The translations under genes and the position numbers were made by a program. The notes beneath the pieces are model-generated. The model did not search any database. It was not told where the DNA came from and was given only the letters and a program-made list of their open reading frames with translations. 64,000 bases of DNA from Methylotenera sp. (GTDB lineage Bacteria; Pseudomonadota; Gammaproteobacteria; Burkholderiales; Methylophilaceae). The DNA is taken from positions 7,205-71,204 of the forward strand of contig DATHXI010000051.1 in the NCBI GenBank assembly GCA_035459705.1. Reading direction: 5' to 3'. Positions 46,981 to 52,966 of this stretch are shown piece after piece; positions within the stretch are counted from its first letter, which is position 1, and each line of letters begins with the position of its first letter.

Positions 46981-47433
46981 GTGAAAAAATACTTATTGGC
47001 GTTAACTGTTTTGTTGGTCGCAACTACAGCACAAGCAGAAGTAGGTGTCTCAGTTAGAATAGGTCAGCCGGGGTTTTATGGCCAGATAGATGTAGGTGAT
47101 TACTATCCACAACCACGTGTGATATATGCTGAACCAAGAGTAGTTCATGTTGTGCCATATGATGTGCGCCCAGCACCGCTATATCTGCGTGTCCCACCTG
47201 GTCATGCTAAGCGCTGGCCACACTACTGCGATAGATACAATGCATGCGGACGCCCAGTCTATTTTGTGCAAGATAGTTGGTATCAAGAAGTGTATGTGCC
47301 TAGATACCGCCACTATCATGAGCATGGAGATGATGGCAGACGCTATGACCGTGATTATTGGGATAAACATGGCAATGGTGGCGGAAATGGTCACCCAGGT
47401 AAGGGTCATGGTAAGGACCGTGGCAATCACTAA
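46981..47433 (+). CDS. Exported hypothetical protein, Pro/Tyr-rich with a Gly/His-rich tail
   Basis: Signal peptide AQA, VGVSVRIGQPGFYG, VPPGHAKRWPHYC..Y.ACGRPVYFV; GAGG SD and downstream terminator. Confidence 0.85.
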   Translation: MKKYLLALTVLLVATTAQAEVGVSVRIGQPGFYGQIDVGDYYPQPRVIYAEPRVVHVVPYDVRPAPLYLRVPPGHAKRWPHYCDRYNACGRPVYFVQDSWYQEVYVPRYRHYHEHGDDGRRYDRDYWDKHGNGGGNGHPGKGHGKDRGNH

Positions 47434-47454
47434 AATATAAGGATTGAGTGAAGT

Positions 47455-47482
47455 AAAAAGCCAGCTTAAAGCTGGCTTTTTT
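47455..47482. terminator. Bidirectional intrinsic terminator
   Basis: AAAAAGCCAGCT-TAA-AGCTGGCTTTTTT between convergent genes. Confidence 0.88.
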
Positions 47483-47512
47483 ACTGTGAGGACGAAGATT
47501 TTAATTAGGGAC

Positions 47513-48070
47513 TTAATTGATGAAAGTCAATTGCTGCTGTACAAACTCCATCGGTTTACGCTTAAAACCACTCTTAGCAAATTGGTGCCAGCGACCAATC
47601 ACAAAACAAATCATCAAATTAGCTTGCGCCTCTACATCACCTTTGTTGCCAGTCTGTGTTTCTGAGATGCGCAGGCTTTGCTTAAGCGTCACTTCAATAC
47701 GGTCATACAATTGATTGATACGTAGTTGCAGGCTGTCATCTTCATTAACTAATGCATCGCCAATCAGTACGCGCGTCATGCCTGGATTCTTCTCAGCAAA
47801 GGCGAGTAGCATGGTGACAGTGCGTTGTACTTGTTTTAAACCATCCGTTTCCTCAGTGCTGATTTTGTTGATTAAGCCAAAAATCGTTTCTTCAATGAAC
47901 TCGATCAGGCCTTCAAACATTTGTGCTTTGTTGGCGAAGTGACGGTAAAGCGCAGCTTCAGATACATCCAATTTTGCAGCGAGTGAAGCAGTGGTGATTT
48001 TCTCGCGCTTGGGGGATTCCAGCATCTTGGCTAGAGTTTCTAAGATTTGTTGTTTGCGTTCGCCTGCCAT
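47513..48070 (-). CDS. slmA: Nucleoid occlusion factor SlmA (TetR family)
   Basis: ITTASLAAKLDVSEAALYRHF, MFEGLIEFIE, NPGMTRVL; argB-HAD-slmA synteny. Confidence 0.96.
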   Translation of the reverse strand: MAGERKQQILETLAKMLESPKREKITTASLAAKLDVSEAALYRHFANKAQMFEGLIEFIEETIFGLINKISTEETDGLKQVQRTVTMLLAFAEKNPGMTRVLIGDALVNEDDSLQLRINQLYDRIEVTLKQSLRISETQTGNKGDVEAQANLMICFVIGRWHQFAKSGFKRKPMEFVQQQLTFIN

Positions 48071-48123
48071 TTTTTATTTTCCCTGAATTATTTTTAGCAA
48101 ATGATGGTTTTTATTTTTGGGAA

Positions 48124-48756
48124 TTATAGCTTAAGGTGAGTAAGTGCTAACACTCCGTTGATTCTGTAGTCTACAAAATTGGGTTTATGTAACTGTTTGG
48201 TGACCCATATCGTGCGCATACCAAGCCGCTTGGCCGTCATCAATGCGGATAGTGTGTCTTCCAGCATGATGCAATCACTGGGTTTGGCGTTAATAGATTT
48301 AAGCAACCTTTGAAAGCCTCGCGCAGAGGGTTTGGCATGGAATGCAGCCGATTCCACACTGAATACCAGCTCAAAAATGTCGCCGATACCGAGTAAGTCC
48401 AGCACTCTTAACGCATAGCTACGCGGTGCATTAGTGAATATTACTTTGCGTCCTGAGAGGCTTTGTAGCATGTGCCTTAATCGTTTGGTTTGTAGCACCA
48501 TTTCTGGCAGGGTGATGAGTTGGTGCGTTTCTTCGAGAAAGTGATAGGGGTCAGTACCGTGATGGCGCATCAAGCCCTTGAGCGTTGCGCCGTAGATACG
48601 CCAATAATGTTGACGCAGTGATTCAGCTGCGGCTTCATCTAAAACCAGGGTGTCCATGATGTACTGCACCATGCCACGATTCATCACCGGAAATATGTGC
48701 GCAGAGGCGTTGTGGAGCGTGTCGTCGAGATCGAATATCCAAATTCGTTTAGACAT
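48124..48756 (-). CDS. Pyrimidine 5'-nucleotidase (HAD)
   Basis: FDLDDTL, YGATL, FTNA, KP, LEDT. Start set to ATG 48756. Confidence 0.9.
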   Translation of the reverse strand: MSKRIWIFDLDDTLHNASAHIFPVMNRGMVQYIMDTLVLDEAAAESLRQHYWRIYGATLKGLMRHHGTDPYHFLEETHQLITLPEMVLQTKRLRHMLQSLSGRKVIFTNAPRSYALRVLDLLGIGDIFELVFSVESAAFHAKPSARGFQRLLKSINAKPSDCIMLEDTLSALMTAKRLGMRTIWVTKQLHKPNFVDYRINGVLALTHLKL

Positions 48757-48881
48757 CTTGCAGCTCCAGTTCGAAGCTAAAACAAGGCAACAAGAAGCGA
48801 GCAGCGCAGACAGTGCATTTGGCACGGCAAGCTGTAAGCGACGGGGTTAACACAGTTTTAGCGATGAAATGGAGAGTGCAA

Positions 48882-49796
<915 letters not shown>

Positions 49797-49848
49797 TTAG
49801 ATGATTCGAATTGTATATAAAAATCGCGCTCAGTGTTTCGCAATTCAC

Positions 49849-51462
49849 TTATAGAGTTTTGCTAAACACTTTAGATTTACGCTGAAAATTATAGAGCTGC
49901 TGTTTCTCTATCGGCAATCTTTCCACATTCTGTTCAGTAAACCCACGCTCTAAAAACCAGTGTTCCGTATGCGTAGTAAGGCAGAACAGGCTTTTAAAAC
50001 CCTGCTCTTTAGCTTGTACTTGGCAGTGGTTGAAGAGTTTGTCGCCACGTCCACCACCTCTGTAGGCCGGATCTATCGCCAGGCAGGCAAACTCAGCGGT
50101 TTTTTCTGCTGCAAACGGATAAAGTGCCGCACAGCCGATAATGCGATTGTCATGTTCCATCACATGGAAATGGTCAATTTCCATCTCGATGCGTTCGCGT
50201 CCGCGCCTGACCAAAACACCTTCGGCCTCTAATGGTTCTATCAGTTTCAGTATGCTGCCTACATCATCAATATTGGCTTGCCGCATAAGCTCTAAGCTTA
50301 ATTCTGTCACCATGGTGCCAATACCATCATGCGTAAATAGCTCTTGAATAATAGCGCCATCAATATGCCGACTAATTAAATGCGTACGTGCTACACCATG
50401 CTCACACGCACGTACCGCCGCTGGCAGGTAGTAGTTGATGTCTTCAGAAATATTGATCGCTTGTTCATTTTGAGAAACATTCCGCAGCAAGTTTTTGGCC
50501 TTTTCGGCGGTCATCTCCCGCAATAGTTCGCCACGTAGGTTATGCACACCTTCAGAGTCCATCAAGAAAATAAGCTTGTCCGCATCCAGTGCAATTGCCG
50601 TGCTCACGGCTACATCTTCTAAACTCAGGTTAAATGCTTCGCCCGTAGGTGAATAGCCTAGCGGTGACAGCATCACTAACTCGCCATCATCCAGACGTTT
50701 TTGAATGCCAATGGCATCTATTCTGCGTACTTCTCCGGTATGTTGCAGGTCTACCCCATCGCGCACACCCATCGGTTTGGCAGTGACAAAGTTACCACTT
50801 GCGACCCGGATATCGCTGCCTGCCATTGGTGAGTTCACCAGTCCCATCGAAAGTAATGCTTCAATTTCTACGCGAATCGCGCCATTGGCTTCTTTCACGG
50901 CTTCCATTGCTTCGTCATCAGTCACACGTAATCCATTGACGAATTTTGGCGTCAGTTTATCGCGACGTAAGCGCTTTTCAATTTGTGGGCGCGAGCCATG
51001 CACTAATACCAACCGTACTTCTAAGCTCGCCAGCAGATTTAGGTCATGCGACAGCGCAACAAATTGCTTTTCATTAACAACCTCGCCACCGAACGCAATC
51101 ACAAAGGTGCGGCCGCCAAAGGCGTGAATGTAAGGCGTGGCAGACCTAAACCAATGTACAAACTCTTTTGCCGATACGCCACCTTTTTTGGAGGTAACAG
51201 ATTTTGAGTTGGTCTGTAAATTGACGATATAAGGCTGCAGATTCTCTTGCACGCTAAATGCACTGTCGTTTTGAGAATAAAGATAAGCGGGTGTGCAGTT
51301 TAATGCCTCGGAGATTTTGCGTAACATGGTCTCAGAAACGCCAAGTTCGCCACGTTCTATGCGTGATAAATTCCCCGCATCAGCACCGATAGTATTAGCG
51401 AGTGCTTGTAAGGTTATACTCAGCGACTTGCGCCGTTTGCGTATGGAAGTACCTAGAGACAT
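49849..51462 (-). CDS. argA: N-acetylglutamate synthase ArgA fused to an N-terminal XRE-family HTH domain
   Basis: aa 1-62 are an XRE HTH (IRKRRKSLSITLQALA...LSRIERG...KISEALNC). From about aa 100 an AAK domain (WFRSATPYI, LVHG, ELFTHDGIGT), then a GNAT domain (EFACLAI, YRGGGRG, HWFLERGF). Confidence 0.95.
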   Translation of the reverse strand: MSLGTSIRKRRKSLSITLQALANTIGADAGNLSRIERGELGVSETMLRKISEALNCTPAYLYSQNDSAFSVQENLQPYIVNLQTNSKSVTSKKGGVSAKEFVHWFRSATPYIHAFGGRTFVIAFGGEVVNEKQFVALSHDLNLLASLEVRLVLVHGSRPQIEKRLRRDKLTPKFVNGLRVTDDEAMEAVKEANGAIRVEIEALLSMGLVNSPMAGSDIRVASGNFVTAKPMGVRDGVDLQHTGEVRRIDAIGIQKRLDDGELVMLSPLGYSPTGEAFNLSLEDVAVSTAIALDADKLIFLMDSEGVHNLRGELLREMTAEKAKNLLRNVSQNEQAINISEDINYYLPAAVRACEHGVARTHLISRHIDGAIIQELFTHDGIGTMVTELSLELMRQANIDDVGSILKLIEPLEAEGVLVRRGRERIEMEIDHFHVMEHDNRIIGCAALYPFAAEKTAEFACLAIDPAYRGGGRGDKLFNHCQVQAKEQGFKSLFCLTTHTEHWFLERGFTEQNVERLPIEKQQLYNFQRKSKVFSKTL

Positions 51463-51481
51463 AAGTGAAGTTATATAAAAA

Positions 51482-51524
51482 TGTAATAATTACAAAATAT
51501 TATAACAATTATGTAATTAATGCA
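51482..51524 (-). promoter_or_regulatory. argA promoter with two palindromic operator candidates
   Basis: Perfect TGTAAT-A-ATTACA (51482-51494) and imperfect TGTAAT-T-AATGCA (51512-51524) flank an extended -10 TGTTATAAT (minus strand, 51507-51499). Confidence 0.7.
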
Positions 51525-51548
51525 AATTTACATTGATAATTGAAGTTT

Positions 51549-52295
51549 TTAATTGAAATCGCCCCATAAGGTTTGCATGGCGGCTATGGCAGCTAATGAG
51601 GCGGTTTCTGTGCGTAATACTCTCGCGCCTAGCTGGATAGCCTGAAACCCATGTAGCTTGGATGTTGCGATCTCCTCATTAGTAAGACCGCCTTCGGCAC
51701 CGATCAATAAGTAGATGTTGCCTATGGGCTTAGTTAAGCTGCTTAAGTGTTGAGTCGCATCTGGTGCCAATGTGATTTTGCAAGCATCTGGTTCTGCAAT
51801 TTTGGCAAGTTGAGCAAATAAGTTGCTAAAGTTAAGCGGTGCGCTAACTGCCGGTACTATCGCCCTGCCTGATTGTTCGCAGGCTGAGATTGCGACATTC
51901 TGCCAATGCTCGGTACGTTTTTCTGCACGTTCGGCTGATAGTTTCACCACGCTCCGTTGGCTGGCAAACGGTTGAATGTGAGTTACACCAAGTTCCACCG
52001 CTTTTTGAATCGTGTAATCCATGCGATCGCCGGCTGAAATTGCCTGCAGCAAGGTGATGCGCAAAGGCGACTCATTGTTGACTTGTTCTACAGCAGTAAT
52101 TTTTGCAAAGACTGAGTTTTTATTGATAGCGGTCAGTTCGCATTCGTAGTCTTTTCCATCGCCATTGAACACGATTGCGCTATCACCCACGCTCAAACGC
52201 AAGGCGCGCGTGGCATGTGCAGCCGCACTTTCGGAAAGTTGGACTGATTCGCCCAGGACTAATGGGTTGTTGGTATAGAAGCGCAAATTGGCCAT
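51549..52295 (-). CDS. rsmE: 16S rRNA U1498 N3-methyltransferase
   Basis: QKAVELGV, ACEQSGR, IGAEGG, LGARVLRTETA. Confidence 0.97.
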   Translation of the reverse strand: MANLRFYTNNPLVLGESVQLSESAAAHATRALRLSVGDSAIVFNGDGKDYECELTAINKNSVFAKITAVEQVNNESPLRITLLQAISAGDRMDYTIQKAVELGVTHIQPFASQRSVVKLSAERAEKRTEHWQNVAISACEQSGRAIVPAVSAPLNFSNLFAQLAKIAEPDACKITLAPDATQHLSSLTKPIGNIYLLIGAEGGLTNEEIATSKLHGFQAIQLGARVLRTETASLAAIAAMQTLWGDFN

Positions 52296-52399
52296 TGGTC
52301 TAGCGCCTTAAACTGAGAACTACAAGTGAAAATAAAAGTGATAATATAAACATTAAAATTGTCATACAAATAATTATAACGAATTTAAGGAGTGAAAAA

Positions 52400-52966
52400 A
52401 TGGCTAGCGTAAATCCCCCTGTGTGTGATTTCGGATGGCGCGCCCCAGACTTCAACTTATTAGGTGTTGATGGTAAGCGTTATTCTTTAGCGAACAGCGT
52501 GGGCAAAAACGGTTTATTGGTGATGTTCATCTGTAACCACTGCCCTTATGTGAAAGCCATTAAAACACGCCTAGTCGCAGATTGCCGTGAGTTGCTGCAA
52601 TATGGCATCAAGACCATTGCTATTCAAAGTAACGATGCGGAAAATTATCCTGAAGATTCTTATGAGCGCATGATGGAAGAAGCTGCGCTATTTGACTTCT
52701 CATTCCCATATGTGCTGGACGACACGCAAGAAGTGGCAAAGACCTATGGTGCTGTCTGTACGCCGGATTTCTTTGGCTTTAATGCGAATCTGGAGTTGCA
52801 GTATCGAGGCCGTTTTGATGCGGCTGGACGAGGTGAACCGCCAGTGGATAACCCAAGAGATTTGTTGATTGCGATGAAGTTGATTGCAGAAACTCAGCGT
52901 GGTCCAGAACATCAAATTGCCAGTATTGGCTGTAGTATCAAATGGTTTGCTGAAGAGTCTATCTAA
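52400..52966 (+). CDS. Thioredoxin-fold protein (AhpC/TSA, PRX-like)
   Basis: FICNHCPYV, YGAVCTPDFF, SIGCSIKW. Confidence 0.92.
   Translation: MASVNPPVCDFGWRAPDFNLLGVDGKRYSLANSVGKNGLLVMFICNHCPYVKAIKTRLVADCRELLQYGIKTIAIQSNDAENYPEDSYERMMEEAALFDFSFPYVLDDTQEVAKTYGAVCTPDFFGFNANLELQYRGRFDAAGRGEPPVDNPRDLLIAMKLIAETQRGPEHQIASIGCSIKWFAEESI

Follow-up and report, generated by a model that had tools for sequence, protein, structure and literature searches.

The window, meaning the whole 64,000-nucleotide stretch of Methylotenera DNA under analysis, is predicted to encode on its minus strand a protein in which an XRE/Cro-type helix-turn-helix (HTH) domain is connected by a linker to ArgA, the N-acetylglutamate synthase (NAGS). 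On the same strand, the gene is preceded by rsmE and followed by argB, a HAD hydrolase gene and slmA. The features of the fusion gene and its immediate neighbors are as follows.

49849..51462, minus strand: HTH-ArgA fusion open reading frame (ORF), 537 amino acids (aa), uninterrupted
51277..51462, minus strand: XRE/Cro-type HTH domain, aa 1-62, five predicted helices, Pfam HTH_3
51352..51381, minus strand: predicted recognition helix D28-AGNLSRIE-R37, in which G30, like L40 nearby, co-varies with the candidate operator
51175..51267, minus strand: linker, aa 66-96, variable and predicted disordered
51118..51171, minus strand: predicted ArgA N-terminal helix, aa 98-115 (AF2 and comparison with the N. 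gonorrhoeae enzyme, ngNAGS)
50305..51168, minus strand: amino-acid-kinase (AAK) domain, with predicted arginine site K296 and E374
50314..50343, minus strand: arginine-binding motif E374-L-F-T-x-x-G-x-G-T383
49852..50295, minus strand: GNAT acetyltransferase domain (R420, E457, C460, CoA loop 468-473, R528, S530)
48882..49766, minus strand: argB, acetylglutamate kinase, 82 bp downstream of argA
51549..52295, minus strand: rsmE, 16S rRNA methyltransferase, the usual upstream neighbor of argA

A preliminary description of this DNA had recognized one uninterrupted 537-aa ORF made up of an HTH, a linker and a complete ArgA, and Pfam and NCBIfam confirmed this composition. HTH_3 was assigned to aa 7-61 (36.1 bits, cut-off 23), AA_kinase to aa 119-364 and Acetyltransf_1 to aa 424-497, while the ArgA model PRK05279 matched aa 97-537 with 696.9 bits (cut-off 344) and TIGR01890 scored 583.2 (cut-off 202.85). 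The Pfam search detected no ArgR domain in the protein. In-frame ATG codons occur at positions 1, 46 and then 186, in agreement with the earlier statement that none lies between aa 46 and the ArgA core, and the sole alternative start inside the linker of this ORF is a GTG at codon 71. The 3' signature of rsmE was found within 300 nt of argA in 124 of 172 loci of the family.

The AF2 model places the five HTH helices at residues 3-13, 18-25, 29-36, 44-53 and 58-64, with pLDDT values of 82-92. The nearest solved sequences are the P22 c2 repressor heads (E 6.5e-6), and a weak match to the BzdR model was also obtained. Over 35 disjoint pairs, dN/dS was 0.083 for the HTH, 0.013 for aa 27-41 and 0.246 for the linker, as compared to 0.022 for the AAK and 0.051 for the GNAT domain. 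By these ratios the HTH is under purifying selection, and together with the model they make the domain look functional. The length of the linker differs by approximately 40 aa across the family, and its pLDDT is about 30 (AF2). The full-length AF2 model (mean pLDDT 59, pTM 0.42) is of low confidence outside the HTH and uninformative on docking of the HTH to the core, and a complex prediction with two copies of aa 1-68 (score 0.21, mark 0.42) counts neither way.

The best PDB sequence match of the fusion is N. gonorrhoeae NAGS (E 5e-87), and its structures 2R8V and 3D2P also ranked first by fold (Foldseek). Arginine-site and catalytic residues were mapped via the alignment with this enzyme, using the residue roles given in the accessible part of a NAGS review (PMC4490483), which names K201 and E270 for the arginine site and R316, E353, C356, S392, R425 and S427 as catalytic or substrate residues. 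The PYI, ADKL, ELFTxxGxGT and RGGGRG signatures that had been called intact beforehand were all recovered, at Y111, K296, E374-T383 and R468, respectively. Among 159 full-length family proteins, K296, E374, R420 and E457 are kept in all, as are the CoA-loop glycines and the E, F, T, G, G and T of the arginine motif, and C460 is kept in 157. T496 stands for S392 of the gonococcal enzyme, a replacement likewise present in 12 of 14 outgroups, and R528 and S530 are invariant across 76 aligned sequences. On sequence grounds, the protein is a complete N-acetylglutamate synthase with an XRE HTH; its conserved N-terminal helix and sites suggest that it would be hexameric, active as an acetyltransferase and inhibited by arginine.

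Distribution of the fusion in Methylophilaceae

The preliminary description would have abandoned the fusion had close relatives lacked it. Of 36 genus relatives, 31 gave a match that starts at residue 1-3 and continues into the core (nearly full-length in 30 and split over two contigs in one), and the remaining 5, which are 71-87% complete, gave a partial argA match or none. Within the family, argA was detected in 242 of 251 genomes, and all 150 matches listed begin at residues 1-7 of the fusion. Closed genomes across the family also carry it, and it is kept in all 216 distinct loci analyzed, i.e., 216 distinct HTH-bearing proteins after exclusion of loci cut by a contig end or with less than 120 nt of flank. 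These include streamlined genomes of 1.0-1.4 Mb (genera g47 and g51, presumably Methylopumilus and OM43), for which loss of the HTH had been suspected from low scores; this was rejected, as a diverged HTH is retained.

A search of 24 other families of the order gave 23 argA matches, which begin at residues 83-102, and the region upstream of unfused argA lacked an HTH in all 14 cases inspected from other families of the order. Among the 150 matches listed from 389 further genomes of the order, none spanned HTH and core (best outside the family, E 2e-16), in a search that overlooked one divergent family member, and a profile search of 400 genomes of the class, with at most 11 candidates scored per genome, likewise did not find the fusion. 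The architecture is a real fusion and no chimera, and it is family-wide and family-defining in Methylophilaceae.

The fusion proteins of relatives already carry Pfam tags, and an Atlas cluster of 53 members has HTH_3 in 96%. In Methylotenera versatilis 301, the gene just before argB, M301_2407, is listed as 'transcriptional regulator, XRE family' with counts of 94-223 (PMC3728764, supplement); its position suggests that it is the HTH-ArgA fusion. Arginine, XRE and argA are nowhere mentioned in the main text of that paper. Public annotation hides the fusion, naming it an acetyltransferase or, judged by position, an XRE regulator.

Candidate operators and their co-variation with the HTH

The preliminary description proposed 51463-51548, between argA and rsmE, as the stretch on which to look for binding, and both palindromes that family comparison found to be conserved fall in this interval, where they overlap the predicted promoter.

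51512..51524, unstranded: candidate operator 1, coding-strand sequence TGCATTAATTACA, overlapping the predicted -35 box
51482..51494, unstranded: candidate operator 2, TGTAATTATTACA, covering the predicted start of transcription
51520..51525, minus strand: predicted -35 hexamer TTGCAT (family comparison)
51497..51502, minus strand: predicted -10 hexamer TAATAT, 17-bp spacer (family comparison and sequence)

The shared upstream motif consists of two 13-bp palindromes, TGYA-W5-TACA in this clade, which at most loci (76 of 96) are separated by 17 bp. In the window the two are 30 bp apart, and a promoter scan reported a sigma-70-like site at 51526-51499. Operator 2 lies 19 nt before the ATG and begins just after the -10 box, which with a 17-bp spacer means that it covers the predicted start site. 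Sites placed over the -35 box and the start would represent the geometry of a repressor. In the source genome (G000), operators 2 and 1 are the best and second-best matches of the position weight matrix (PWM; 23.0 and 20.7 bits, followed by 18.1 bits for a third match before egtB), a ranking that is partly circular because the upstream region of this argA was itself among those used to train the matrix.

A double site within the last 100 nt was present in 115 of 174 loci, versus 0.015 in shuffles, and in 0 of 14 unfused outgroup loci; with a loose motif, a site was found upstream of argA in 199 of 216 loci. A strict 17-mer has exactly two copies in each of three closed g51 genomes, both of them at argA. 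The proximal site of g51 loci (L113, L226, L232, L293-L301) ends 2 nt before the ATG, and no obvious ribosome-binding site is seen there.

The motif changes with residues of the HTH. TGTA half-sites, called when at least two of three unconstrained positions carried them, were found in 101 of 105 loci encoding L40 proteins and in 1 of 64 encoding Q40 proteins, which use TGCG, TGCT or TGTT instead, and at least one intact site was present at 184 of 188 G30 loci versus 7 of 28 S30 loci, the latter having been fetched after the G30/S30 pattern had been noticed; on a FastTree tree, residue 40 changed three times and residue 30 four times, which leaves two independent pairs for each and is not significant. 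In the S30 clade of g59, a genus that groups with Methylophilus records, each of the two palindromes is broken in its right half, and the -35 and -10 boxes remain. This subclade (L202, L253, L257-L273) carries G30S and K49A, with I or V at residue 40 in most cases, and its broken palindromes leave a direct-repeat-like pair 30 bp apart. Since the HTH is otherwise conserved, it may recognize a different site or serve another purpose, and altered specificity may be a better description than loss. One S30 genome, G231, has three strict 17-mer matches, none of them at argA, and the two inspected lie at gene ends.

All 176 site-pair spacings, which include kin and are not independent, and the longest of which are sums, equal 22, 27-32, 41-42, 50-52, 60-62 or 81-82 bp. 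These spacings appear to preserve helical phase, although the number of independent events is too small to reach significance. Spacings of 41-52 bp occur in the genera with the shortest linkers; in g51, which has the shortest linkers of the family, the sites are 41-42 or 50-52 bp apart. Many Q40 genera retain the proximal site only, so binding to two sites cannot be universal.

Candidate autorepression of argA and its alternatives

On balance, these data favor a reading in which ArgA represses its own gene through the two promoter palindromes, with arginine as the probable co-repressor. That the fusion binds its own promoter is very likely, and, if it does so, gating by arginine would be fairly likely as well. 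As in the Neisseria enzyme, the protein would form a D3 hexamer with N-terminal helices interlaced across the two-fold axes, so that the HTH domains would be delivered as three pairs. Each palindrome would be read by one HTH pair, and two pairs of a single hexamer could hold both sites on one helix face. Arginine would bind beside the N-terminal helix, reshape the ring and favor the two-site complex, by which a single signal would both inhibit the enzyme and shut down its production through repression at the -35 box and start site. For ngNAGS, the accessible part of the review describes interlacing of the N-terminal helices across the two-fold axis, flanking the arginine site, and a contraction of the hexamer by about 20 A with a widening of the ring by about 10 A upon arginine binding (PMC4490483).

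A more specific version, in which reshaping of an arginine-gated hexamer sets the distance between HTH pairs relative to operators that lie whole helical turns apart, and in which operators co-evolved with recognition residues and linker across Methylophilaceae, is put forward only tentatively. The main evidence against such gating by geometry is the floppy linker together with the many single-site Q40 genera: a linker that varies by about 40 aa and is predicted to be disordered argues against tight mechanical coupling to arginine.

Autorepression could also proceed without arginine gating, as plain negative feedback on the ArgA level or gated by acetyl-CoA, CoA or glutamate, and this deserves to be kept in mind as a lesser but real possibility. 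The operator evidence fits it equally well, and the long, variable and predicted disordered linker is in its favor, as is the finding, in the accessible part of a study of an engineered XRE-shikimate kinase chimera, that turnover prevented effector control in vivo (PMC3602430). The linker of the same chimera nonetheless transmitted a ligand signal in vitro (PMC3602430, same part), and in the fusion the invariant arginine site adjoins the HTH-bearing helix, though enzyme feedback alone would explain that invariance.

It is improbable that the palindromes belong to another regulator, for example of the LysR type, with the HTH having some other DNA target or none. The LysR-type box is T-N11-A, and the 13-bp site fits this format. 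However, the motif was absent from all 14 unfused argA genes and varies with residues of the HTH, and two g51 genomes retaining both sites each encode just two LysR proteins; in one of these genomes (G086), one of the proteins belongs to the CysB family (over cut-off) and the other is OxyR-like (below cut-off). The promoter of cysB and that of its divergent operon lacked a motif match in the two g51 genomes, and no LysR gene was recognized among the ORFs of window positions 40-62 kb (by inspection, five being scanned with Pfam).

Autorepression of argA also has to be weighed against a functional ArgR replacement that controls the whole arginine pathway. ArgR exceeded its cut-off in 0 of 151 family genomes (control, 8 of 14), which answers the earlier call for a check of these genomes for argR and would suit such a replacement. 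ArgR has been reported absent outside gammaproteobacteria in the accessible part of Leyn et al. (2016; PMC5343134), so unfused betaproteobacteria would also be without it. Against the 199 of 216 argA loci with a loose site, such sites were found in relatives upstream of argD in 1 of 30, carA in 2 of 30, argH in 1 of 30 (for these three genes, the best-scoring 30 of 39-41 loci each) and argJ in 0 of 5, which is at the background of control windows (11 of 322). In G000, where the arg genes were located partly by sequence motifs, the best scores upstream of argJ, argC, argH, carA and argD were at most 3.8 bits, around the 90th percentile of genes or lower. The double-site pattern occurred in 60 of 151 genomes, in 49 of them at argA, versus none for the reversed control, and none of the non-argA double sites that were inspected lies at an arg gene. 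An ArgR replacement is therefore very improbable. From the preliminary description, the idea of a trigger enzyme stands, with a constrained HTH and promoter-overlapping palindromes in its support, and the claim that it substitutes for ArgR is dropped.

Of the double sites away from argA, those of G121, G136 and G227 lie inside the metW coding sequence, that of G131 inside another ORF, and those of G225, G176, G230, G243, G260, G194 and G185 beside unrelated genes; sites of G251, G219, G196, G178, G244 and G168 were left out of the inspection. In several genomes an apparently perfect double palindrome arises by chance from the coding sequence at the start of metW (L136:1493-1545) and can mislead motif scans. 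The 18.1-bit site before egtB was discarded, being present in 1 of 15 egtB loci, that of G000 itself. At this locus (L161:3508-5949, G000:C78) egtB is followed by an egtD-like ORF (ergothioneine synthesis), and an egtB-like gene was seen in 14 of 60 genus relatives. Four g50 genomes carry a second double palindrome (TGCA-type, 18-bp gap; L153:3049-3092, L154:3085-3128, L155:1473-1516, L156:3007-3050) upstream of a PAP2 phosphatase operon, with an operon divergent from it in the three contigs long enough; this is possibly a taxon-specific target or the site of another regulator.

Of 156 loci, 99 have argB no more than 200 nt downstream of argA, and in 47, mostly from deep-branching genera, argB was not seen in the stretch retrieved. 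As argB is not constantly downstream, argA is the only constant target, and argB is possibly co-transcribed with argA here and not family-wide. Since the acetyl group is recycled by ArgJ, whose gene is present in G000 and 5 of 5 relatives, ArgA probably serves only for topping up; control of argA alone, with read-through into argB in some genera, would then suffice. In the window, argB, the HAD hydrolase gene (annotated as pyrimidine 5'-nucleotidase in relatives) and slmA form a same-strand run (47513-49766). A terminator scan of 47300-52500 found none (shuffles, 5.5), a result too weak to show an operon; if read-through past argB occurs, the cell-division regulator gene slmA would share the argA promoter. 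Elsewhere in the family the stretch after argA (L163-L218) varies strongly between genera, looks like an insertion or rearrangement hotspot, and presumably contains small heat-shock-like, pilus-like and receptor genes. Two near-identical argC loci (G000:C1:621-1661 and G000:C12:2-793), each after an rpsI-like gene on a short contig, were also noted in the source assembly and may reflect contamination or a strain mixture.

Finally, an assembly chimera, or a vestigial or untranslated HTH, is scarcely credible: the source assembly is fragmented (124 contigs, 83% complete), but the same fusion occurs in closed genomes across the family, its HTH is under purifying selection, and an ATG is present in the linker in just 22 of 216 loci.

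Relation to known systems

The architecture is already in databases; it is read here as a probable ArgA autorepressor that does not substitute for ArgR. A description of an HTH-ArgA fusion was not found in the literature searched, most subscription papers lying outside it, and the accessible part of the NAGS review lists no DNA-binding form (PMC4490483). If correct, this reading would add such a form to the NAGS family and provide a first handle on the control of arginine entry in a betaproteobacterial family without ArgR. Retention of the control even in streamlined genomes with only two LysR regulators suggests that it is important. The system is tractable, as it comprises a single gene with two 13-bp sites, its hosts are culturable and non-pathogenic, and variants in specificity (L/Q40, G/S30) occur naturally. 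Engineering of arginine-family products in methylotrophs would require the release of argA from autorepression as well as from feedback inhibition.

Classical ArgA, exemplified by N. gonorrhoeae NAGS (PDB 2R8V/3D2P), shares with the fusion the AAK and GNAT domains, the N-terminal helix, the arginine motif and the catalytic residues; the fusion differs in its additional XRE HTH and linker and in the candidate operator on its own promoter. ArgR is an arginine-binding hexamer that represses through paired boxes. Its fold is unrelated and it has no enzyme activity. According to the accessible part of the regulon study, its core regulon includes argA, with about 20 target genes per genome (PMC5343134), in contrast to the single promoter of the fusion. 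By sequence, the closest solved relatives of the HTH are the XRE heads of P22 c2 and 434-type repressors. These repressors oligomerize via a protease-type C-terminal domain, whereas the HTH of the fusion would be oligomerized by the enzyme. BzdR of betaproteobacteria has a similar layout, consisting of an XRE HTH, a linker and a shikimate-kinase-like domain. The enzyme domain of BzdR lost its activity, as stated in the accessible part of PMC3602430, whereas the fusion keeps its catalytic residues and a GNAT dN/dS of 0.051. With a DNA-binding domain on a metabolic enzyme, the fusion resembles the trigger enzymes BirA, NadR, PutA and archaeal RbkR, as described in the accessible part of PMC5397151: its HTH is carried by an intact-looking and presumably active enzyme, and a candidate operator lies at a gene of its own pathway, argA. 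It differs from these four in the enzyme and pathway concerned, in a target that appears to be its own gene only, and in its presumed hexameric scaffold.
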